Source: an uncultured Actinomycetes bacterium (GTDB lineage: Bacteria; Actinomycetota; Thermoleophilia; Gaiellales; Gaiellaceae). From it: DNA of 64,000 nucleotides. Location of the stretch: NCBI GenBank assembly GCA_963732465.1, contig CAVSZQ010000005.1, positions 74,358 to 138,357 on the forward strand, written 5' to 3'. The position numbers were made by a program, and so were the translations under genes. Shown here piece by piece: positions 5,698 through 40,144 of the stretch. Under the pieces are notes generated by a model. It saw nothing but the letters and a program-made list of their open reading frames with translations, was not told the DNA's origin and searched no databases. Numbering within the stretch: the first letter of the stretch is position 1; each line of letters starts with the position of its first letter.

Positions 5698-6336
5698 GTG
5701 CCTTTGATCGTGGCGATCGACGGTCCCGCCGGCTCTGGCAAGAGCACGGTCGCGCGCGCCCTCGCGGCGCACCTCGGCTACCGCTATCTCGACACCGGGG
5801 CGATGTACAGGGCACTGACGTGGCTCGCCCGTCGCGACGGCGTCCCGCTCGAGGACGGTGAGGCGCTGGCGGCGCTCGCGCTCGCGTATCCGGTCTCGGT
5901 CGAGGCGGGAGGGAGCGTCGAGATCGCGGGCGAGGCCGTCTCCGGGCTGATCCGCGACGCCGAGATCGACCGGCTCGTACCTGTCGTCGCGCGCCACCCC
6001 GGGGTGCGTGAGGTCATGCGCGAACGGCAGCGCGCGCTAGGAACGACGGGCGACGCCGTGATCGAGGGCCGCGACATCGGCTCTGTGGTCGCGCCGCACG
6101 CGGAGGTGAAGGTCTTCCTCGTCGCCGACGCGTCGGTGCGCGCGCACCGACGCACGGCGGAGCGTCCGGGCGAGGACGCAGAATCGCTCGCGGCGGATCT
6201 CGTCGTCCGCGACGAGCGCGATGCCGCCAACACACAGCCGGCGCCGGACGCGATCCTGCTCGACACGACCGACCTCACGATCGACCAGGTCGTCGCCCGG
6301 ATCGCCGAGCTCGTCCGGGAGCGGGAGCGCCGATGA
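5698..6336 (+). CDS. cmk: Cytidylate kinase
   Basis: IVAIDGPAGSGKSTVARALA..YLDTGAMYRA. GAAGGGAGAGG SD abuts GTG 5698. Confidence 0.92.
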   Translation: MPLIVAIDGPAGSGKSTVARALAAHLGYRYLDTGAMYRALTWLARRDGVPLEDGEALAALALAYPVSVEAGGSVEIAGEAVSGLIRDAEIDRLVPVVARHPGVREVMRERQRALGTTGDAVIEGRDIGSVVAPHAEVKVFLVADASVRAHRRTAERPGEDAESLAADLVVRDERDAANTQPAPDAILLDTTDLTIDQVVARIAELVRERERR

Positions 6337-19997: not shown

Positions 19998-20805
19998 CAG
20001 CGCCGATCGCCGTTGCAGCCACCGCGCCGTTCGGCGCCGACGTCCTCGAACGCCTCGCCGGCTCGCACGAGATCAGCACCGTCCTGACCCGACCGGACGC
20101 GCCGGCCGGGCGCGGCCGGCGGCTGACGGCCCCACCCGCGAAGCGCGTCGCCGATCGGCTGGGAATCCGCGTCGTGCAGCCAGAGAAGCTCGAGCCGGGG
20201 CTCGATCTCGGCGGTGCCCGAACGGTCGTGGTCGTCGCCTACGGGCGCCTCATCCCAGAGGAGCTGCTCGCGGAGAGGCTCTGGCTCAACGTCCATCCTT
20301 CGCTTCTTCCGCGCTGGCGCGGGGCGGCCCCCGTCGAGCGCGCGCTCATGGCCGGCGACGTCGAGACGGGAGTGACGATTCATCGCACGGTGAAGGAGCT
20401 CGACGCGGGGCCGATCGCCGACGCAGGCGGCCGTTCCTCGTCGAGGAGGACGACGACGCGGGCGAGGTCTACGCGAGAGCCGCCGAGCTCGCAGCGGGCC
20501 TGCTCGACGACGTCCTCGCCGATCCGAGCCCCGACTTCCGCCCGCAGCCCGAGGACGGAGCGACGTACGCGCCCAAGATCGAGCCCGACGACCGCCTCCT
20601 CGACCTCGCACGCCCCGCGCGCGAGCTCGTCGACGTCGTCCGCGCCCTCTCCCCGCACATCGGCGCGCGCACCGAGCTGCACGGGAAGCCCGTGACCGTC
20701 TGGCGCGCGCGGGTCGGCGAAGACGGCAAGTTCGAGCCGCTCGAGGTGCAGCCCGACGGCGGCCGCCTGATGGAGTACGACGCGTGGCTGCGCGGGCTGC
20801 GATAG
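19994..20805 (+). pseudogene. fmt: Methionyl-tRNA formyltransferase, reading frame broken once (about 20417-20431)
   Basis: The N-terminal part (HPSLLPRWRGAAPVERA..ELDAGPIA) is in the frame of 19994. The C-terminal part (RPFLVEEDDDAGEVYARAAEL..LEVQPDGGRLMEYDAWLRGLR-stop at 20803-20805) is in the -1 frame. Confidence 0.85.
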
Positions 20806-29729: not shown

Positions 29730-30109
29730 GCGCCGGTGACCCGGTCCGAGTGCTGCTCGTCGAGGACAACGACGTGTACCGCGAGTCGCTCGTCTTCATT
29801 CTCGGGCGCCAGGACGGGCTCGACGTCGTCGGCGCGGTCGCCGACGGGCGTTCGGCAGGCCCGAGCTGCGCGGAGCTCGACGCCGAGGTCGTCGTCCTCG
29901 ACTATCGGCTGCCGGATGTGGACGGGGCGGAGGCCGCCGAGGACATCCTCGAGCGCTGCCCCGAGGCGTCGATCGTGTTCCTGAGCGCGTCGGCCGGTCC
30001 CGACGAGCTGGATGCGGCACGGCGTGTCGGGGGAGCATTCGTGAGCAAGGACGAAGGAGTCGACGCTCTGGTCAACGCCGTTAGAGCAGCGGCAAGGAGG
30101 GCAGCGTGA
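29726..30109 (+). CDS. Stand-alone response-regulator receiver domain protein
   Basis: VRVLLVEDND..VVVLDYRLPDVDG..FLSAS..FVSKD: acidic pocket, phospho-acceptor Asp, Ser/Thr and Lys positions are all present. 4-nt overlaps with both neighbours. Confidence 0.85.
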   Translation: MSAGDPVRVLLVEDNDVYRESLVFILGRQDGLDVVGAVADGRSAGPSCAELDAEVVVLDYRLPDVDGAEAAEDILERCPEASIVFLSASAGPDELDAARRVGGAFVSKDEGVDALVNAVRAAARRAA

Positions 30110-30966
30110 ACCTCACGACCGAGAACACCGCAATCGTGCTCGACTCGACCTCGGACTATCCAGAGGCGCAGTCCCGATTCCCCAACATGCGCTTCGTCCC
30201 GCTGTACGTGCGCTTCGGCGACGACACGTACCGCGACTACGTCGAGCTCGGGCCGGCGGAGTTCTTCGAGAAGCTCCGCACGTCGCCCGTGCTCCCCGCG
30301 ACCGCGCAGCCGACGCCGCAGGACTTCCTCTCGACCTACGAGAGTCTCGCCGGGTACGAGCGCATCTACTCGCTCCACGTCTCCGCGAAAGTGTCGGGAA
30401 CCTTTCAGAGCGCCGAGCTCGCGGCTGCGGAGCTCGGCGACGATCGCGTGCGCGTCGTGGACTCGAAGACGGCGTCGCTCGCCATCGCGATGCTTGCGCA
30501 CGCGATCCAGCGGCGGCTGAGCCGCGGTACGACCGATGTCGAGATCGCGGCGCTGATCGAGCGCTTCCACCGCGATATCGGCGTGGTCTTCACCGTCGAG
30601 ACGCTCGAGTACCTCCAGCGCGGTGGCCGGATCGGCCGGGCGGCCGCGCTCGCGGGCTCGCTGCTCAACGTCAGGCCGATCCTCGGCATCCAGGACGGCG
30701 AGGTCGTCGCTGTCGCACGTGTCCGCGGGCGGCAGAAGGCGCTGGCGGAGTTCGAGCGGCGCTTCGCCGAAGCGACCGAGGACAAGCCGGGGCTTCGGAT
30801 CGCGATCGCCCATGCCGACGCGCCGGAATGGGTCGGCACGCTCTCCGAGCTCGTCTGGCGGGTTCGGCCGAAGGCCGAGATCGAGTTCACGGGCACGCTC
30901 GGCGCCGTGGTCGCCACGCACGCCGGCCCGGGCACGGTCGGCTTCTTCTGGCTCCACGACGACTGA
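30106..30966 (+). CDS. DegV-family (FakB-like) fatty-acid-binding protein
   Basis: Full-length DegV-like sequence (AIVLDSTSDYP..TAQPTP..SGTFQSA..GPGTVG). Confidence 0.9.
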   Translation: MNLTTENTAIVLDSTSDYPEAQSRFPNMRFVPLYVRFGDDTYRDYVELGPAEFFEKLRTSPVLPATAQPTPQDFLSTYESLAGYERIYSLHVSAKVSGTFQSAELAAAELGDDRVRVVDSKTASLAIAMLAHAIQRRLSRGTTDVEIAALIERFHRDIGVVFTVETLEYLQRGGRIGRAAALAGSLLNVRPILGIQDGEVVAVARVRGRQKALAEFERRFAEATEDKPGLRIAIAHADAPEWVGTLSELVWRVRPKAEIEFTGTLGAVVATHAGPGTVGFFWLHDD

Positions 30967-30987: not shown

Positions 30988-32610
30988 CTAAAGGCCGGGA
31001 AGGGAAAGCAGCTTCAGCTCAGATGGCTCGAGCTTCGACAGCCGTTGCCGTACTCACGCGCGTCGGTTCGCAACGACGTCTCCGACGCCTCACTGAGCGC
31101 TACAAACAGCACTTCCGGATCGACGCCGCTTCGCGGTTCAACCACGAGCCAGTTATTCAGTGGGATCGCCCCAGCTCGATTGCGTACGAAGCGGGGACGC
31201 ATGCGGTTCAGATACGTAAATAGGATTGGCGCCTCGAAGTCCGCCTCGACCGCCCACCACGGCCGTCTCGCCTTCACGCGGAGCTTCACGAGGTGGCGCT
31301 CGTGAACGCCAAGCGCGTCGGCGCGCTGTAGGTAGCGTTCGAGTGGACCGCCGAGCCGGGCACGCGACGGATAGAGAAGCCACCGCGGTGCGCTCGCGGG
31401 CAGCGCCGCGAGCGTGTCGTTATCGATCTCTTCGCCGTCAAACCAACGCGGAGAACCTGCGCACGGCCGAAGACATGACCAGTTGAGACCGTGGAGCCGG
31501 CGATCCTCGTCGCTCAGCACAAAGAACTTGTTGCAGCCTGTGGCGGCCCCTCGCCGAACGCGGGCAACTTCTTGAAGAGTCGTTGCCTGCCGATTCCGGG
31601 TGCGCTTCACTGTCGACCACCTCTCTCTGGCCGAGAGCTGAATGTGCGTGGCCCCCGTGTCGGCTGAAAACGCATGCATGATGTCCTCGCGGCTGATCGA
31701 CGCGGCGTGAGCGAAGCGCGTGCGAGCGCGCCCGCTTCGTGTGGCACGCTTGCGGATCAGCGTCACGGCAGCGGTCGTGACGGCGTGCTCGAAGACGAGG
31801 TGGTGCGCCGGAAATTGGACGATCGCCTCGACTTGCGCACGCTCGAGCAAGAACATCTTGACGACGCGTCCGTAGTTCCTATCGAGCCAGTGTGCGGGTG
31901 TGATGAAGGCGAGCCGCGCATCCTCGGCCGAGATCTCGAGCGCACGAATCGAGGAAGAGCACGTGCAGCGACGCGAGCTGGCTGATTTGCAGGCCGAGGC
32001 GACGCTTGAAGCCTGCGTGAATGGCGAGTTTCTCCTCGCGGCTGAGCTCTTGGTGGCGCGTGAACGGCGGGTTGCAGATCACCGCATCGGGCCGTTCCTC
32101 TACGTCGTCCAACAGGAAGTTCCGGGCATGGAGCTCGAGCTCGGCAACTCCGCGAAGGGTCGCGTTCGCCGACGTCATGGTGATCGCGAGCGAGTGAACG
32201 TCGATCCCGACAAACGTGGTCGTCCCGGTGCGCTCGTGCGCGGCGGCCGCGAGGAGCGAGCCCGAGCCACACGCGGGGTCGAGAAGCAGCCGCGGCTCGT
32301 CCGCGAGCAGCCAGGCAGCCCTCGAGCGGCCAATGGACAGCGGGGTGAAGAACTGGCCGAGCGCCCGCCGGTCGCGCCCGTGGAGAACGCGCTCGTACGC
32401 GGCACCGATGACGTCGCGCCCATCCGTCCACGCCGGATCGCCCAGCCGGACGTCGAGCTCGCAAAGCACCGCGGCGAATGCGGCCCTAATGGCGCCCGGC
32501 TCGCGCGCGTCGGCGACGCGGCTGAAAACCCGCGCGACAAGCTGCTCGACAGCGACATCGGGACTCTCCATGAGCTCTGAATCTACGCCGCCGGGCGGAC
32601 GACTCGACAT
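30988..32610 (-). pseudogene. Gamma-class N6-adenine DNA methyltransferase (Eco57I/TaqI-like, with C-terminal target-recognition domain), two frameshifts
   Basis: Motif X GQFFTP, motif I LLDPACGSGSLL, motif IV NPPFTRH. The frame changes near 31948-31950 (LHVLFL | IRALEISAEDARLAFITPAHWLDRNYG) and near 31041-31043 (REYGNG | LSKLEPSELKLLSLPGL-stop at 30988). TRD motif RRGAATGCNKFFVL. Confidence 0.85.
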
Positions 32611-32648
32611 AGTTGTCCGTACGGGGCACCTGATATTGCCTCCGATCC

Positions 32649-32675
32649 TTGCATTGTACGAACTCTTGCTATAGT
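32649..32675 (+). promoter_or_regulatory. Candidate sigma70-type promoter for the RHH gene (TTGCAT-15 nt-TATAGT)
   Basis: Read directly in the AT-rich gap between the divergent MTase and RHH genes. A TACAAT-like -10 exists on the opposite strand (32654-32659). Confidence 0.35.
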
Positions 32676-32695
32676 TCACCCAGATAGCAGCTACT

Positions 32696-33720
32696 ATGCC
32701 GATCGTGACCGTAAACATAGAATCGAACACTCTATGAGGCCGTGGAGAGAGCCTTAACGCAGGGAAACTACAGCGACCTGCACCAGTTCGTCGTCGTGGC
32801 CGTCCGCAACCAGCTCGAGCTCGAGGCGTCCGTCGCTCTCGAGCAGCCGGTCGCTGCGGCTGTCTCTTCGATGCCTCCCGCCGCTACGACTGAAACGCCG
32901 CTGGCTTCGATCCCCCTCGAACTTCCGGCGATGCTGAAGGCTGTGCCGGCCGCGACTGCCGCCGAACTCCCCAAGCCCGTCCCTGTCGACGATGACTCCG
33001 ACGTCCTGTGGGGGCAGATCAACCGCGTCCTCCCGATTGCGGTTGGCGTCCGCGTGCTGGCTCACCTCAGCGCGGACAGGGCGAACGGCGTCTCGGTGGA
33101 GGAGTGGCACGAGACGGCTACGGCCGTGGCCGTCGCGCTGCGGCCGCACCTCAGAAAGCTCGACGAAGCAGCTGGCCGGCGACACGGGAGCCTTTGGTCG
33201 ACCGCGTTCCCGGACGACACGCCTGCGAGTGCGCACCGATACGTCAACCAGTTCCTTGGGCTCCCGAAAGGACGGGCCTCTCCGATGGCGGAGCCGCGTT
33301 CCTTGGCTTCATCGACGTTCGATCGAGGCGACACCGTCGCGACGTCTCACGATCAGCCGGCGCGGAGTGGGCGCGCGTTCGCGAACCCGCTCTTCGACGA
33401 CGGCGACTCGCCGACCCGAACGTTCAGCCTGGAGGAGACCGCGTTCTTCATCAACCACCTGGAGCATGTATCGGCCCGCCGAGCTGCATCTTGCTGAGGC
33501 GGATCGCAGCGCTCGTCGCGCAGGGCCGGTCGCGGACGCAGCTGGACGAAACGCTTGCTGCAGAGCACCCGCAATGGACGAAGTACATCGCGACGATGCG
33601 CGCTGGAGCGCTGGGACGGCTGTCCGACCTCGGGCTTGCTCGAGCGCACCCGGCGCGGCCTCGACCGTCGACTACTCACCTGACGGCGCTCGCTGCGGAG
33701 GTCGGGCTGCCTACCTGATC
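32696..33720 (+). pseudogene. Ribbon-helix-helix N-terminal domain protein with C-terminal winged-helix-like region, frame broken several times
   Basis: ATG 32696 gives MPIVTVNIESNTL-stop. The +1 frame continues YEAVERALTQGNYSDLHQFVVVAVRNQLELE (CopG/Arc-like RHH). The middle is ..DVLWGQINRVLPIAVGVRVLAHL... The tail ILLRRIAALVAQGRSRTQLDE..GALGRLSDLGL / LLERTRRG / STVDYS / LTALAAEVGLPT is spread over three frames. Confidence 0.6.
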
Positions 33721-33738
33721 GGTTGAAGTGGGTGCGGC

Positions 33739-34745
33739 GTGAATAGAGTCGCAGCGCCGACGCTCTCGAAGGATCAGCTGATCCTCGCGATGCTCGCCAG
33801 ACTTGGAGGCGATCGCCGGGAGATGAACGAACGCGACCTCTTTCTCGCGTGCTGGCACGCGTTTCCGAACGCAATGCGGTGGACGGACACGGCACTGCCG
33901 AACCCGGACACGTTCACCGCATCGCTGCGGCGACTCGATGCAGACGGGCTCATCGAACGGATCGGAAAGCAGGAGAGGACGCGTCGGAAGAGCCGCCGTC
34001 GCCAGGCGATCGACGTCGGCCGCTCCGGGAGTCGTGAAGGCGCGGATCGTCGAGGGTGGGCTTGAGAAGGCTGGCCTCACCGGAGGCCGACGTTGACCGG
34101 GTGCGCCGACTGCTACCGCCGCCCGACGCGTACCGGGCAGTTCCCGACGCTGCGCTGCTCGCCCTGTGGATCAAGGCGCGGCGGGACGAGCAACGCCACG
34201 TTGACGAGGGCGCGCTCGTCGAAACGGCTTTCCACAAGTTCCCGGCCGCCTTCGCATATCGCGAGCGCCCGGAGTTCCCGGACACGGCGCGGATCAAGAA
34301 CGGCGATGGCCGGCGCGCATCCGCGACGGGCTTGATCACGTGGGACTTGGAGCTGACTGCCGACAGGGCGCGACGAGATTGAGAGGCACAGCAACCTGAT
34401 CGAACTGCGGCTCGATGCCTCGGAGAGCCACAAGACCGGAGCATTCAAGCTCGCCGAGCGGATCGCGGCAACCGCCGGTTTCGAGCACTACCGCGCGACG
34501 GGGACGCTCACCGCAACCAAGGCCGACGAGCTCTTCCGCGCGCTGCGCGTCGCACCCGACAACGGACCCGAGACCAGTGGCGCAAGCCCTGATAGCGCGA
34601 TCGCGCGACCTTCGAAGGATCGATCGCGGCGATATCGCCGACTACCTGTTTCAGAGTGGCGGAGCACCACAATCCGGAAGTCACACGCTCTCGCGAAGGA
34701 CGACGCTACAAGCCGCAGCAACCGCTGCGCGGCGGGGAGGAGTGA
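33739..34745 (+). pseudogene. Hypothetical protein with an internally duplicated ~110-aa domain, frame broken several times
   Basis: Repeat 1 ..ERDLFLACWHAFPNAMRW..PNPDTFTASLRRLDADGLIERIG; repeat 2 ..EGALVETAFHKFPAAFAY..EFPDTARI..TGLITWDLELT; tail IERHSNLIELRLDASESHKTGAFKLAERIAAT... The pieces lie in ORFs 33739..34065, 34056..34382 and unlisted frame-1/frame-2 stretches. Confidence 0.5.
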
Positions 34746-34749
34746 ATCT

Positions 34750-36687
34750 GTGGCGATTTCTGAAGCCGAACCCGATCTCGAGTACGAGCCGCTTGAGTAC
34801 GACCCGCGCTACTACATCCAAAGCGCGAGGCCGAGCGTCTCGAGCGTCGGGCACATCATCGCCGAGCGTTCGAATACGAGGCGATCTCGCGGCGTGCGGC
34901 TCGCGACGGCACAGGTGACGCCGGCACGATCCGGATCATGTACGACCCGGACCCAATACTGGAGGTTCGCTGACAACGGCGTCGATGTCGGCGGACGAGA
35001 TGAGGGAGCGACTGAAGAAGGTCGGCGCCGCGGCACTGGAAGGCGCGAAGCGCGGCTTCTTCCATCGCGGCATCCAGCGACGTTTCATCCGATGGGGACG
35101 ATCACCGTCAGAGCCTCGGCTCCAGGATGGCGAACTCGTAGTAGTCGCCTCGTTCGACCACGCGCGGCATGGCCTTCATCAGCGCCACGTGAGGTGAACG
35201 ACGCGATCGTCATCGCTCGACTGAGCCACGGGACGGTCGTCACGTTCCCGCTGGCGGCTCGCGGCGCAGAAGCCGAAGCTGTTCAAGTTCGGCACACTCA
35301 AGTCGCAGATCGAGAATTGCGTGCAGGTTCGACCGGTTCTGGCGGATCGACGACCGGGAGATCCTGTTCGAGTATGGCGACAGCCCCGCGAAGCGGCTGC
35401 AGTTCAAGTATCCGAAGGGGGACGAGCTCATTCCGGTGAAGCACAGGTCACAGTGGCCGGGCACTCCGGCGACGTTCTGGGCCGAAGGCCGCCGACGAGC
35501 CGATCACTGGGTGGGTTCGGAAACAGCAAGCTCACGCGCCGCTACGGGCTCCTGATCCGCGGAGAACGGGCGGCGTACGAGGTCTAGCACCGGGGAGAAG
35601 CTGCACACTAACCCGGTGATGCAGCGCGTCTACGGCGAGCTGCGGCTCGACGAGATCGAGGCGCTGCAGCGCGAGGCTGACCGAGAGGCGAACGACGAGG
35701 CTCAGCTGATCTACAAGGCCGATCGGTCCGGCCTGAATGCGGATCACGAACTCGTCGAAGCCACATACGCCTTCATCGACGACGAGCTCGCCCCACTCGT
35801 CGCCGAGCTCGAGGCGAAGGCGGAGAAGAAGGAGATCACGCCGGACATGCGCCGGCAGCTGAACAAGCTCGCGCAGATCATCAACAGGGCGGTCGAGAGC
35901 GCACCGTTCGGTGGCATCGAGGATCCCGGCGGTACGACGACGCCGGAGCCCGGCGAAGGCCCGGATCGTTACTCCCCCGCCACCCAGCCGCCGAAGGCGC
36001 GCGAGGTCGACGACATGGAGTTCGCCTACGAGCTGATCTTCATCCACGCCGGCCAGTCGCGCACCGTCAAGCTCTACTTCAACACTGAGAAGATCCCGAC
36101 CGGGACGCCGATCGAACTCGTTTCGGAGCACGGACGAGATCGTCCGTGAGGTGAAGATAGCAAGCGAGGTGCCGCGCCCGAACGAGAACGCCGTCGCGTC
36201 CGTTGACGTGACGATCATCGCGCACACCGCCGAGGGTCGGCATGAAATCGAGGTTCGCTCCGGCGGCTACGCAGCAACGCTGCCGGTACACGTCCGGTTC
36301 CCGCGCGCGAGCGGGTTCATCAGCCAGATCGTTCTCGACGAGCGCGACTGGCCCTCGGGAAGCGCTTTGTACGATCCGGCTACAGGTCGCGTGACCGTCT
36401 TCATCGGTCGCCCTGAGTTTCGGAGCGCGGCGCTGCGCGCAAAGCGTGACGGCGCCAAGGAATCGATGAAGCACGCGCTCTACCGCGAGCTCGTCGTCGA
36501 GACGATTCGCGAGGCGGCGCTGCGGCCAGCGGCGCAGCGTAAGGCCGAGGTCGAATGGGACGACCTGCCCTACGAGGAACGTCAGGAGCGTGATGCGTTC
36601 CTGAACCTCGTGCTAACCGAGTATTACGAGCTCGACTACCAGCTTCGCGCTGCTCTTCTGGACGCGTTCCTGAATGTTGGTAGCTGA
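34750..36687 (+). pseudogene. GHKL-superfamily (MORC/Hsp90-like HATPase) ATPase of about 645 aa, at least eight frame disruptions
   Basis: GGAGG SD 9 nt before GTG 34750. N-box IIAERSN-EAISRR (frame 1 to frame 0 at 34876), G1 box ILEVR-DNGV-(G)MSADEM split over three frames at 34968-34985, then SHGTVVTFPL. Third-position GC follows each frame switch. The C-terminal half corresponds to ORFs 35616..36149 and 36151..36687. Confidence 0.7.
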
Positions 36688-36801
36688 CGACACCGTAGAC
36701 GCCGTGTCGGAGCGGACTGTCCCGATCGCGCCTCGGGTCCTCGCCGGGATTCTACGGCGACGTGAGGGCGAGACGACATCGTCGCGGCCGCTCCTGCTGG
36801 C

Positions 36802-37960
36802 TTGACGCTCGCGGATCTCGACGCGGATGTCACCGCATCGCTTCCGCCTGAGATCGTTCGTGTTCTTCGGCGTGCGGTCGCGGATCACGTGCGCCAACGA
36901 TGCCATCGCATCTCGAAACTCAAGCCGTTCACACAGATGCCGCGACGTCTGCGCCTGTCGGACCTCGACCTGTCGGTGCGCGCTTTCAACGCGATAAGTC
37001 GATTCCCGCGGCCGTGGCTTCATGACGCGACTATCGGCGTTCTCCTGGAGCCGCCAGGCCTCGGGGCCGGCGTCCTCGTCGAGGTCCTCGCCGCGTAGGC
37101 CGCCGCGAGAGTAAAGCTGTCGCGTCTGCCGATGCTTCGCCACGGAGCCGAAGGAGGCGGAACCTTCGGAGCCGGAGCGGAATGAGCGTCCGATTCCGCA
37201 GCGCGTTCTCGACATGCGCGCGCTCTACGAAATCGGCGCGAGCCTCGGCGAGGTCGCAGAGCGCTTCAGCGTGACCCGCGAGCGCGTTCGTCAGTTGTTC
37301 AACTCCCACGGGGTGCCGACGCGGTCGACAGCCGAGACCGCCGCGATGCGGCGCGAGCAGCTGGTGATCGCGCACCGGGATCAGATCTTCGGGATGATTG
37401 ACGCCGGCGTCGCTCCGAACGAAATCGCCGACCGTCTTGGCATCTCGCCGCAGCGTGTGCACGACGCACTCCACGACGATCCCGGTCGCCGCCGGCTCGC
37501 CGCCTTCCGCCGGACGGCGAAGACGAGACCGAAGCCGAAGTATTCGGACGAGGAAATCATCGAGTGCCTGCGCACTGCGAGCGTCGAACTCGGCGGCGTG
37601 CTGACTACGGCCGAGTACACGAACTACGCGCGCACAAGGCGGTTTCCTGACGGACGCCCGTGGCCGCTACATCAGACCCCGTTTCTCAGGTTCAGCAGCT
37701 GGCGCGCTGCGCTACAGCGCGCTGGGCTCGAGGCGAACCCGCCGTCCGCGATCGCCGGTCAGCGGCTGTTCACGCGCGAGCTCTGCATCGACGCGATCCT
37801 GGAGGTTGAGCGCGAAGTCGGCCATCCCCCAACCGCGGCGGAGTACGAGCGCGCGGCGGTCGCGAGCAACGGAATCCTCCCTAGCCTCGCGACGGTTCGG
37901 CACCGCTGCGGCGGTTGGCAGGAAGCCCTCGTCTCGGCGGCGCGGTCTAGCCAGTTCTGA
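36802..37960 (+). pseudogene. RNAP alpha-CTD-like + sigma70 region-4 HTH + second HTH + two homing-endonuclease-associated (HEAR) repeats; in-frame TAG plus a frameshift
   Basis: LSDLDLSVRAFNAISRF..TIGVLLEPPGLGAGVLVEVL (alpha-CTD-like); TAG at 37096; then the +1 frame reads ..ERNERPIPQRVLDMRALYEIGASLGEVAERFSVTRERVRQL (sigma r4), PNEIADRLGISPQRVHDAL, and two repeats ending FSSWRAALQRAGL / CGGWQEAL. Confidence 0.6.
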
Positions 37961-38052: not shown

Positions 38053-40144
38053 TTGAAGCCTCACGCCAGACTCGTAAGGTTCGCCGGCGGGGAGGCGCCT
38101 GCCTCTTGGCCGCGGCCGCGGAGCGTGCCGCGCCCGGAACGGCTCGCAGCCTCCGTCGAGACACTCGACGGCGTCGGCCCTTCCGTCGCGAAGCGGCTCG
38201 CGAAGCTCGGGCTCGAGCAGGTCGGCGATCTCCTCTGGCAGAGGCCGCGGCGCTACGAGGAGCCGGTGCCGGAGAAGCGGATCTCGCATCTCTTCGGTGA
38301 GGACGAGGCCGTGATCGACGTCGAGGTCGTGTCGGTTCGGAGCCGGAGACGAGGCCGCCTGTCGATCCTCACCGCCAAAGTGCAGGACGACACCGGTTCG
38401 ATCGAGGCGACCTGGTTCAACCAGCCGTGGCTCGAGGGCAAGCTCCCGGGCCGCCGCGTCCGACTGCGCGGCCGCCGGAACAGGTTCGGCTTCGGCGTCT
38501 CGTCGTACGACCTCGAGGGAGAGGCCGAGACCGCCGACTTCGCGCCCGTCTACCCGGCGAGCGAGGACGTCACGCAGAAGAAGCTCCGCGAGCTGCGCGC
38601 GCAGGTGCTCGGGCTTGTACGCGACGCGGGTGAGCCGCTGCCCGCGGAGCTGCGTGCTCGCGAGGGCCTGCCGCTGCGCGCCGACGCACTCGCGGCCCTG
38701 CATCGGCCGCGGGCGCTCGACGAAGCGGAGACCGGCCGCGCGCGACTCGCGTTCGACGAGCTTCTCGTCCTGCGGCTCGCGCTGGCGCGAACTGCCGCCG
38801 AGCGCGAGCAGGCGTCGGCAGAGCCGCTCGCCGAGCCTGGCGAGCTCGTCGCCGCGTACGGGGCAGCGCTTCCCTTCGAGCTGACGCGAGATCAGGACGA
38901 AAGCGATCGCCGAGATCGACGCCGACCTCGGCCGCACGACGCCGATGCACCGCCTCCTCCAGGGCGACGTCGGGGCGGGGAAGACCGTCGTCGCGCTGTA
39001 CGCGCTCCTGCGTGCAGTCGAGGCGGGGCGTCAGGCGGCGCTGATGGCGCCGACCGAGACACTTGCCGAGCAGCACTTCCTCACCGTCGACGAGCTCTGT
39101 TCCGGGCTCGGGATCAGGGTCGAGCTCCTGACGAGCTCGCTCCGTGCGAGCCAGCACGCGAACGTGCGCCAGCTGATCGCGTCCGGCGACGCGCTCCTCG
39201 TCGTGGGCACGCACGCACTCATCCAGAAGGAGGTCGAGTTCCGCGACCTCGCGGTCGTCGTCGTGGACGAGCAGCACCGCTTCGGAGTCGGGCAGCGGAG
39301 CGCCCTCGCCGAGGGCCGCAGCCCGCACGTCCTGCACATGACCGCGACGCCGATCCCGCGCACGCTCGCGCTCACCGTCTACGGCGACCTCGACGTGAGC
39401 GAGCTCGCGGTGCTGCCGGCGAACCGCAAGCCGGTCATCACGCGGCGCATCCCGGACGAGCGCGCATCGGAGGCGTACACGCGCCTGACCCGGCTTCTTC
39501 ACGAAGGCCGTCAGGCGTACGTCGTCTGCCCGCTGATCGAGCAGTCCGAGACGATCCGCGCGCGTGCGGCAGAGGCCGAGGCCGACCGCCTGCGCTCCCA
39601 CGAGCTCCGCGACTTCAGCGTCGGCTGTCTCCACGGGAAGCTCAAGGCCGCTGACCGACGCGAGCTGATGGCGCGCTTCAAGGCTGGAACGCTCGACGTG
39701 CTCGTCGCGACGACCGTGATCGAGGTCGGTGTCGACGTCCCGAACGCCACGGTGATGATCGTGCAGGAGGCCGACCGCTTCGGGCTCGCGCAGCTCCATC
39801 AGCTGAGAGGGCGCGTCGGGCGTGGGGCGGAGCAGTCGTACTGCCTGCTTGTTTCGCGGCCGACCGACGAGCTGACAGAAGACGCGGCGAAGCGCCTCGA
39901 CGCGATGGTCGAGACGACCGACGGCTTCGTGCTCGCCGAACGTGACATGGAGATCCGCGGCGAGGGCCAGCTCCTCGGCGCGCGGCAGTCCGGCTTCTCG
40001 GATCTCCGCTTCGTCCGCCTTCGAAAGGACCACGACCTGCTCGAGCGCGCTCGGGACGCGGCTGCGACGGTCACGGACGAGGGCCTGCTCGCCGAGGAGG
40101 TCGACGCGCTCCTCGGCGAGGCTGAGCACCTTGGTGCGTCTTGA
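38053..40144 (+). pseudogene. recG: ATP-dependent DNA helicase RecG, reading frame broken once at the AAA run 38900-38902
   Basis: The wedge/N-terminal part is in the frame of 38053 (likely start GTG 38125) up to FELTRDQDE. Removing one A restores ..AIAEIDADLGRTTPMHRLLQGDVGAGKTVVA.. (ORF 38945..40144, with DEQHRFGV and helicase C motifs). Confidence 0.88.

Follow-up and report, generated by a model that had tools for sequence, protein, structure and literature searches.

A gene for an Hsp90-like GHKL ATPase, read over three frames, in a methyltransferase-linked five-gene cassette with probable assembly errors

The window examined here is a stretch of 64,000 nucleotides from contig CAVSZQ010000005.1 in the genome assembly GCA_963732465.1 of an uncultured bacterium of the family Gaiellaceae. 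Positions 34750 to 36687 on its forward strand represent one gene for a 652-residue Hsp90-like GHKL ATPase, and this gene is the fourth in a conserved cassette of 5 genes (30991 to 37960), all of which are broken by frameshifts. The original prediction for this region had described a GHKL ATPase gene with broken frames, without giving a cause. This observation is correct, but the breakage is not peculiar to the one gene and affects the whole cassette. Judging by the way the lesions are distributed, a technical artefact is the most probable cause, namely a patch of the assembly with a low-quality consensus, to which we assign a probability of about 0.7. Most likely, the organism itself does not have the scattered frames.

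The peptides quoted in the original prediction were all present between 34750 and 36687, spread over the 3 frames of the forward strand, and the GTG start codon at 34750 was preceded by a GGAGG motif at 34736 to 34740 with a spacer of 9 nucleotides, as described. A stitched translation of the pieces retrieved 96 homologues, of which the best, about 90 in number, were 645 to 664 amino acids long and covered 97% to 100% of the query. The intact homologues, of 645 to 661 amino acids, come from soil metagenomes and metagenome-assembled genomes (MAGs), and were labelled "hypothetical" wherever the source named them, a few of them with a precomputed PF02518 assignment. Using a protein-to-DNA dynamic programme that allows for frameshifts, written for this analysis, the closest homologue (P0001, 652 amino acids) could be aligned from the start codon at 34750 to the stop codon at 36685 to 36687 with 86% identity, 15 frame changes and 6 absent codons. 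The frame changes were located at about 34877, 34962, 34981, 35159, 35190, 35254, 35348, 35440, 35471, 35484, 35509, 35585, 35967, 35987, and 36129 to 36132. The protein encoded by the related locus L012 gave the same picture, with 85% to 86% amino acid identity across both references. The match of the fragments to a single protein is far beyond chance. The pieces belong to one protein and are not unrelated fragments.

The gene, 652 codons long when intact, was divided by these changes into 16 segments, which followed each other in frames 0, 2, 0, 1, 2, 0, 1, 2, 1, 2, 0, 1, 2, 0, 2, and 0 relative to position 34750. The G+C content at third codon positions (GC3) was highest in the frame indicated by homology for 15 of the 16 segments, and was 0.82 along the repaired reading, compared with 0.60 to 0.68 in any fixed frame. 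The contrast of 85% to 90% against about 45% given previously held for several segments, but was somewhat overstated for the short ones. With both the frameshift-aware alignment and the GC3 profile in agreement, the observation of a scattered reading frame is confirmed.

We identified 83 invariant positions in an alignment of 39 homologues. These included E39, N43, D45, and E46 in the N-box, which could be aligned with the N-box of HtpG, as well as G80 and G82 in the G1 box, which takes the form ..(T/G)DDG(A/V)GM.. in the family. The T169-G170 pair was also invariant, and T169-G170-T171 fits motif IV, an assignment that was made by position only. The same applies to the segment KRGFFHRGIR(D/E)VF, which sits at the position expected for the lid and is not a canonical GxxGxG motif; R105, F108, R110, G111, R113, V115, and F116 are invariant in this segment. 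The N-box in the window was split over 2 frames and shortened by a deletion of 7 nucleotides (IIAER-SN / EAISRR), with D45 lost, and the G1 box read ADNGV / SMSADEM, with a 2-nucleotide deletion in the codon for G82.

Models based on sequence placed the protein close to the detection limit. The scores obtained with the Pfam model HATPase_c were 21.5 bits for the L012 protein and 24.9 bits for P0021, which is below the cut-off of 26.4 bits, and the stitched translation of the N-terminal fragments in the window gave no match to this model. A distant relative, P0150, passed it with 30.2 bits. The MORC-type model HATPase_c_3 matched one relative only (E 0.006), and a search of the family profile against the PDB matched the N-domain of HtpG at E 0.004, with the N-box and the G1 box aligned. 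In the AlphaFold2 model of P0001 (a predicted structure with a mean pLDDT confidence score of 82), the top 50 Foldseek matches in the PDB were all chains of the Hsp90 family, with a probability of 1.00. The matches to TRAP1, HtpG, Hsc82, GRP94, and Hsp90-beta covered about 420 columns (E 5e-12) and spanned the ATP-binding (N) and middle domains. With the sequence models only borderline, we regard the fold as the deciding evidence for the GHKL identity, and the earlier assignment to the Bergerat-fold ATPases is supported by the invariant motifs and the predicted Hsp90-type fold. As for the family, for which both HtpG-like and MORC proteins had been suggested, the closest fold was that of Hsp90/HtpG and not that of MORC or MutL.

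The last 228 residues were modelled separately (pLDDT 86) and gave an immunoglobulin (Ig)-like β-sandwich followed by a helical hairpin; no nuclease domain was found in this part by fold comparison. In the models, the protein begins with the Bergerat domain that binds ATP, which is followed by a middle domain of the Hsp90 type and by an extended helical linker with a disordered, proline-rich stretch; the Ig-like β-sandwich and the helical hairpin form the C-terminal part. The models support an ATPase that is of Hsp90 type by fold, but placed outside the chaperone family proper. It resembles HtpG, TRAP1, GRP94, and Hsp82 in having an N-terminal GHKL domain and a middle domain and in its overall N-M-C layout, and its C-terminal helical module could dimerise. 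However, the sequence identity to this family is only 10% to 17%, every HtpG/Hsp90 family model scored far short of its threshold (the NCBIfam model for HtpG, for instance, requires 371 bits and gave 17), and the predicted C-terminus shows the β-sandwich and hairpin rather than an Hsp90 C-domain. Moreover, the gene is located in a methyltransferase-linked mobile cassette and not in a chaperone context.

The cassette was located by tblastn searches with the proteins of a related locus, L001, which aligned as a whole to positions 30991 to 37957, between degV (30085 to 30966) and recG. The first gene, on the reverse strand (30991 to 32610), codes for an N6-adenine DNA methyltransferase of 540 codons with frameshifts at about 31041 (-1) and 31949 (+1). 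It was 78% identical at the amino acid level to the methyltransferase in L012, as estimated by tblastn and frameshift-aware alignment, and the intact homologue was placed in the N6_Mtase/Eco57I type by both Pfam and PADLOC. The 4 remaining genes are all located on the forward strand. The second gene (32696 to 33718), here called g347, has 347 codons when intact and is of unknown function; its frameshifts, about 10 in number, are without exception insertions and were located at 32729 and from 33269 to 33709. When the intact homologue was compared with the families in Pfam, NCBIfam, and PADLOC and, by sequence, with the PDB chains, no match exceeded the threshold. The third gene, g331 (33739 to 34745, 331 codons when intact), also of unknown function, contained 11 frameshifts from 34027 to 34730, each of which was a single-base insertion, and an additional +1 insertion was located at 34745, within the 3-nucleotide spacer between g331 and the start of the ATPase gene. 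From a reading of its sequence, the g331 product is a putative DNA-binding protein, and neither g331 nor the ATPase belonged to any family in PADLOC, NCBIfam or Pfam above threshold.

The fifth gene (36674 to 37960), the start of which overlaps the stop codon of the ATPase gene by 14 nucleotides, codes for a predicted DNA-binding protein with helix-turn-helix (HTH) and HNH_repeat domains, about 404 to 430 codons long when intact. It contained 4 frameshifts, with +1 insertions at 36756 and 36773 and deletions at about 37097 to 37135, and only the segment from 37214 to 37960 survives as an open reading frame (ORF). The number of frame changes in the frameshift-aware alignments was thus 2 for the methyltransferase, 10 for g347, 11 for g331, 15 for the ATPase, and 4 for the HTH protein, and the amino acid identities of the repaired cassette proteins ranged from 77% to 86%. 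We noted that the gene for the HTH/HNH_repeat protein was called as 2 ORFs (171 and 265 amino acids) in the related locus L013 (5870 to 7157), as seen in 2 independent samples, and this split is likely to be genuine in nature.

The gene order in the relatives is a divergently oriented methyltransferase gene (527 to 540 amino acids), followed by the genes for the proteins of 347 to 356 and 331 amino acids, the 652-residue ATPase, and the HTH/HNH_repeat protein of 404 to 430 amino acids. The hosts are soil bacteria of the Actinomycetota (Thermoleophilia/Solirubrobacterales), Binatia and Dormibacterota, in which the cassette is located in mobile or defence islands, often beside genes for integrase, relaxase/TraG, AbiE, HEPN_AbiV or Schlafen-AlbA proteins. 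The g331-ATPase-HTH trio was present in all 9 of the GTDB genomes examined, which are MAGs, and at each of the loci inspected the ATPase gene was flanked by g331 and the gene for the HTH/HNH_repeat protein. A methyltransferase gene was found nearby in 8 of these 9 loci, at varying positions; the sequence of the ninth, L004, starts inside the cassette and does not include this flank. A methyltransferase gene was also adjacent in the window and in L001, L012, and L013. It was also observed that the methyltransferase has been swapped between loci, with identities of 27% to 38% to the reference, and that g331, the ATPase, and the HTH protein are mostly 44% to 62% identical. The G+C content of the window is about 70%, but only 66% in the region from 30 to 38 kb, which suggests that the cassette is a horizontally acquired and dispensable element. 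No tRNA gene was found within the window, no convincing direct repeats flanked the cassette, and there was no integrase gene among the 5 genes.

A 4-way DNA alignment of the window with L012, L013, and L001 was used to isolate window-specific indels with a length that is not a multiple of 3. We counted 49 such frame-breaking indels in the cassette, and the ATPase gene accounts for about 21. Insertions outnumbered deletions by 37 to 12 (P = 2e-4 against 1:1), single-base insertions accounted for 33 of the 49 events, and most lesions were 1 to 2 nucleotides long and located outside homopolymers. Substitutions that generate stop codons were absent from the 2,275 aligned codons. The lesions were strongly clustered, with 40 of the 49 located between 33269 and 35586, corresponding to 2.3 of the 7 kb (P = 5e-12), and their density was 17 per kb in the cluster compared with 0.035 per kb outside the cassette, where 2 broken genes were found in about 57 kb. 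A DNA alignment with cheap gaps, designed to reveal hidden compensated indels, over-called such events, with 13 to 57 in intact control pairs, and was used qualitatively only.

Two zones can be distinguished in the ATPase gene. The first, located in the ATP-binding domain (34866 to 35253), was defined from the 4-way alignment and a check of the invariant residues, and contained a run of deletions of 7, 2, 2, 1, 1, 1, 6, 1, 1, 6, and 2 nucleotides plus a single +1 insertion. At about 35076/35083, HRGIRDVF was turned into HRGIQRRF by a +1/-1 pair that compensates itself, and the lesions of the zone as a whole destroyed D45, G82, R113, V115, A118, and T169. The second zone (35347 to 36132) contained insertions of +1, +2, +1, +1, +1, and +1 at 35347 to 35586, followed by a +1/-1 pair at 35967/35987 and a +1 insertion at about 36132. 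No further frame change was seen between 36133 and the stop codon.

As a side observation, the net length change was 0 nucleotides in the methyltransferase gene, +3 in g347, -21 in the ATPase gene, -3 in the gene for the HTH protein, and +12 in g331 plus the spacer. The net change was a multiple of 3 in 4 of the 5 genes, which leaves the start and the stop codon in one frame, and this is probably a coincidence (chance about 0.05). The shared frame of start and stop in the ATPase gene, together with the good conservation of the repaired reading, would be in line with biological recoding, that is, programmed ribosomal frameshifting, transcriptional slippage or RNA editing. However, recoding would have to correct the frame of a single gene 15 times or more, in either direction, the sites show neither slippery heptamers nor homopolymer tracts nor a common motif, the catalytic residues D45 and T169 are physically deleted, and in the relatives one frame codes for the whole protein. 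No bacterial recoding mechanism is known to act at such a density, and the probability of this explanation is close to nil.

The sequence context of the insertions was informative about other processes. Only 10 of the 33 single-base insertions touched an identical base, which is less than the random expectation of 43% to 47%, and slippage in homopolymers, whether natural or of the type seen with 454, Ion or Nanopore sequencing, was therefore rejected. The inserted bases were 8 A, 6 T, 13 G, and 6 C. Site-specific cleavage followed by end-joining was also considered and discarded, as there was no common motif within 8 nucleotides on either side of the insertions (information at most 0.13 bits), the only trend in the motif analysis being that T was slightly under-represented at position +1. 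The distribution of the insertions over the codon phases (15/4/13) was weakly non-uniform, which we attribute to the placement of gaps by the aligner.

We next weighed the possibility that the entire methyltransferase-GHKL cassette has been inactivated and is decaying, so that the indels are real and the genes are genuine pseudogenes, which we regard as unlikely. All 5 genes are hit, with 15 frame changes in the ATPase gene and about 42 to 49 in the cassette, which is the load of disabling mutations that a natural pseudogene might carry, the low G+C content of the island is consistent with a dispensable element, and related cassettes are occasionally disrupted, as exemplified by the split HTH gene in L013. 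However, bacterial pseudogenes have a deletion-biased mutation spectrum, and neutral decay of a dead operon is expected to be roughly uniform. The spectrum observed here is a different one: insertions exceed deletions by 3:1 and are not located in homopolymers, only 30% of the single-base insertions lie beside an identical base, none of the approximately 49 lesions is a nonsense mutation, and the lesions are strongly clustered. Nor were there any large deletions, and all start codons, the Shine-Dalgarno sequence, stop codons, and the 14-nucleotide gene overlap have been preserved.

The substitutions also argue against relaxed selection. In comparison with L012, the overall ratio of nonsynonymous to synonymous substitution rates (dN/dS) was 0.205, and even g331, with 11 insertions, had a value of 0.126. 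Among the changes specific to the window lineage, 54% were located in third codon positions and 50% were synonymous. In the zones dense in insertions, 70 to 90 window-specific changes per kb were found, compared with 48 to 83 in the flanks, and we saw neither an excess of substitutions nor a deviation in the third-position share, which was normal at 58% to 67%. Of the 83 positions that are invariant in the family, 76 have been kept, and 6 of the 7 losses were caused directly by indels in the zone from 34866 to 35253. The natural ratio of indels to substitutions is about 1:10. At this ratio, the 26 consecutive insertions from 32729 to 34745 would have been accompanied by more than 100 extra neutral substitutions, and none were seen; decay would require a ratio above 1:1, and this within 2.3 kb only.

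Furthermore, 2 housekeeping genes of the window were broken by insertions of the same appearance. The recG gene to the right of the cassette (38155 to 40144, forward strand) was interrupted by a single additional base at about 38886 (LPFELTRDQ / TKAIAEIDADL), and the stitched RecG protein matched the equivalog model NF008168 in one stretch with 767 bits (cut-off 718). The fmt gene for methionyl-tRNA formyltransferase (20018 to 20805, forward strand) contained what appear to be 2 single-base insertions near 20421 and 20437, about 17 nucleotides apart (GPIAD/QAAVP/VEEDDD), a reading that was obtained by inspecting the 3 frames, and the match of the stitched protein to TIGR00460 continued through the junction without a break. 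The fmt gene is normally indispensable. These +1 insertions, identical in appearance to those in the cassette, also speak against decay of the cassette as the source of the lesions. The remainder of the window consisted of long, clean ORFs. Frameshifts were scanned for across the window with a crude hidden Markov model of codon usage, and its additional calls at 6332, 25286, 30084, 21810, 52735, 52890, and 63372 were dismissed as boundaries between adjacent genes or edge effects.

The bias towards insertions, the clustering, the absence of nonsense mutations and of a substitution surplus, the low dN/dS value, the retained invariant residues, and the similar +1 insertions that break fmt and recG are the reasons why we favor a technical artefact. 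The approximately 49 indels in the cassette would then be errors in the assembled sequence rather than mutations in the organism, which probably carries an intact cassette under selection. The errors could have originated from few or noisy long reads, from an unpolished or gap-filled stretch, or from a mobile island that is present in part of the population only. Indel-rich stretches in unpolished long-read assemblies or gap-filled regions are well known as artefacts by which ORFs are broken into pieces. Such artefacts resemble the window in that they consist of indels of 1 to 2 nucleotides without substitutions or nonsense mutations, cluster locally next to clean neighbours, and are accompanied by occasional single frameshifts in housekeeping genes.

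One special case of an artefact is a chimeric consensus, in which co-existing variants of the island, 85% to 95% identical, have been collapsed and turned by the polisher into a mosaic with spurious indels. Many variants of the cassette can be found per soil sample, as illustrated by P0001 and P0002, which come from one JGI sample, the most garbled zone (34751 to 35300) is also the zone in which the window is most divergent from its relatives, and the columns next to the insertions were polymorphic among the relatives in 18 of 36 cases, compared with about 12 expected. On the other hand, window-specific mismatches were found beside only 3 of the 36 insertions, compared with about 7 expected, most insertions are clean single bases in an otherwise conserved context, and the +1 insertions in the single-copy genes fmt and recG are left unexplained. 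We consider a mosaic of this kind somewhat less probable still than decay of the cassette. The more specific suggestion that the consensus caller has written both alleles in series was rejected, given the 3 of 36 insertions beside window-specific mismatches.

Several observations nevertheless weigh against our interpretation. The lesions are arranged in runs of one sign, with 26 insertions from 32729 to 34745, deletions in 10 of 11 cases from 34866 to 35253, and 9 insertions from 35347 to 36773, and this structure is highly non-random (permutation P = 5e-6). We know of no specific sequencing platform that would explain these runs neatly. Nanopore errors are usually deletions in homopolymers, unlike the lesions in the window, which are biased towards insertions, avoid homopolymers, and occur in separate sign runs. 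The share of nonsynonymous changes was 50% in the window lineage, compared with 39% to 41% in the intact loci L012, L001, and L013, a mild increase that would be expected from decay, and which is partly due to the garbling in 34751 to 35300. This is the sole part that looks unconstrained: the deletion zone contained up to 162 window-specific changes per kb with no bias in codon position, and is garbled in a more complex way than the rest. The public sequencing runs searched included none with the island, and other parts of the window shared at most 7% of their k-mers with any run; an exact 44-mer spanning 3 of the insertions was absent from 241 million metagenome records. A record of the window's RsmD protein was likewise not found, and the genome was not one of the GTDB representatives that matched a pattern present in the window. 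Defence islands do decay in nature, as seen in both samples with the split gene in L013. Finally, the GHKL assignment of the ATPase itself is supported by a predicted fold together with sequence matches below threshold.

If the indels are real, they could instead reflect a local, insertion-biased mutational process that has shredded a defence cassette in a very short evolutionary time, for which repeated breakage with error-prone end-joining within about 2 to 6 kb is a candidate. Such a burst would have left no accompanying substitutions in the cassette and sporadic single-base insertions elsewhere, in fmt and recG. We find it improbable, clearly more so than either decay or a chimeric consensus, but if true, the mutation pattern would in itself be remarkable.

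For the favored technical artefact, the consequences concern the annotation of this genome. With an ORF caller, the cassette of 5 genes would be missed in favor of some dozen "hypothetical" fragments that mean nothing, and fmt and recG would be called broken. Once the patch is recognised as rich in indels, the assembly can be flagged as unreliable in this part, which cautions against conclusions about pseudogenes or "genome decay".

Related cassettes in other assemblies were mostly in good condition. Two soil MAGs based on Nanopore reads only, from a catalogue for which the methods have been described (PMC12313526), contained the cassette with 1 to 4 frameshifts, mostly deletions (L004, 400 to 5450, and L009, 200 to 7550), and the cassette was essentially intact in the other 4 loci from Nanopore MAGs as well as in 3 loci from short-read assemblies. 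The frameshifts in L004 and L009 are consistent with either error or decay, and are far milder than those in the window.

The ATPase gene codes for an uncharacterised GHKL ATPase of the kind found in methyltransferase-linked conflict systems. No system model in PADLOC matched the cassette, no helicase or nuclease domain was found among the 5 proteins in Pfam, PADLOC or NCBIfam, and we found no description in the literature of the cassette or of an Hsp90-like defence ATPase. The conservation of a cassette linked to a methyltransferase, the mobility and defence genes in its surroundings, the lack of a matching PADLOC system, and the few family matches make the intact cassette a candidate for an undescribed methylation-linked defence system.

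A comparison can be made with the prokaryotic MORC and paraMORC1-5 proteins, which are ATPases of restriction-modification operons with a GHKL domain and a second domain of the S5 type, and which have been proposed as the ATP-driven component of restriction-modification-like systems on laterally mobile elements (Iyer, Abhiman & Aravind 2008, PMC2292703). The ATPase of the cassette likewise combines a GHKL domain with a middle domain and is encoded beside a DNA methyltransferase and DNA-binding proteins. However, the cassette did not reveal a partner of the helicase, Vsr, HNH or PD-(D/E)xK nuclease kind, and the top folds were those of Hsp90 rather than MutL or MORC. The motifs and partners specific to these families, such as the MORC motif, partners with an SF-II helicase or restriction-endonuclease fold, the ExxxH motif of paraMORC2, and the RecB-like C-domain of paraMORC3, were not seen in this comparison, which was based on domain matches and on the fold of the C-terminal part.

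The methylation-associated defence system (MADS) consists of mad1 to mad8, of which MAD6, MAD7, and MAD8 are mandatory (bioRxiv 10.1101/2023.03.30.534895). The methyltransferase of the cassette was locally similar to mad2 (92 bits and E 1e-26 in PADLOC; 46 bits with the NCBIfam model for MAD2), and the HTH protein showed a weak resemblance to mad1 in PADLOC. However, the score of the methyltransferase was far below the cut-off of 720 for the MAD2 equivalog, and membership in MADS was rejected, as PADLOC gave no matches to mad3 to mad8 in the cassette and the mandatory MAD6 to MAD8 are absent. Matches to the BbrUII/HgiDII family (NCBIfam NF050001) and to the PADLOC model REase_II PDLC03419 were obtained at residues 32 to 97 of the ATPase, which contain the GHKL motif, so that by this match the two appear to have an N-terminal GHKL motif region in common, and the enzymes of this family are also encoded beside a methyltransferase. 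However, these matches amounted to 13 to 17 bits over about 40 to 65 residues, compared with a cut-off of 550, and no nuclease fold was seen in the C-terminal 228 residues of the ATPase.

From its predicted fold and gene context, the ATPase probably functions as an ATP-driven dimeric clamp or switch, similar to Hsp90, MutL, and MORC. It would act together with the putative DNA-binding protein g331, the HTH/HNH_repeat protein, and an exchangeable N6-adenine methyltransferase, and the cassette would serve as a restriction-like or epigenetic system for defence based on the distinction between self and non-self. By analogy with MORC and paraMORC (PMC2292703), methylation would mark self, and the ATP-driven complex would act on DNA without this mark.

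The homologues retrieved with the repaired reading form a small family of GHKL ATPases of Hsp90-like type, and soil bacteria are their only hosts. A profile search of 1.84 billion cluster representatives identified 39 at E<=1e-30, many of which were fragments. The wider clade comprised 546 cluster representatives at E<=1e-10, of 540 to 780 amino acids, which share the N and middle domains and are unannotated apart from HATPase_c. We also noted a distant relative of 943 amino acids, P0186, in which the N and middle domains are fused at the C-terminal end to a DSP-PTPase phosphatase of polymorphic-toxin systems, a fusion that points to a role for the wider clade in conflict systems.

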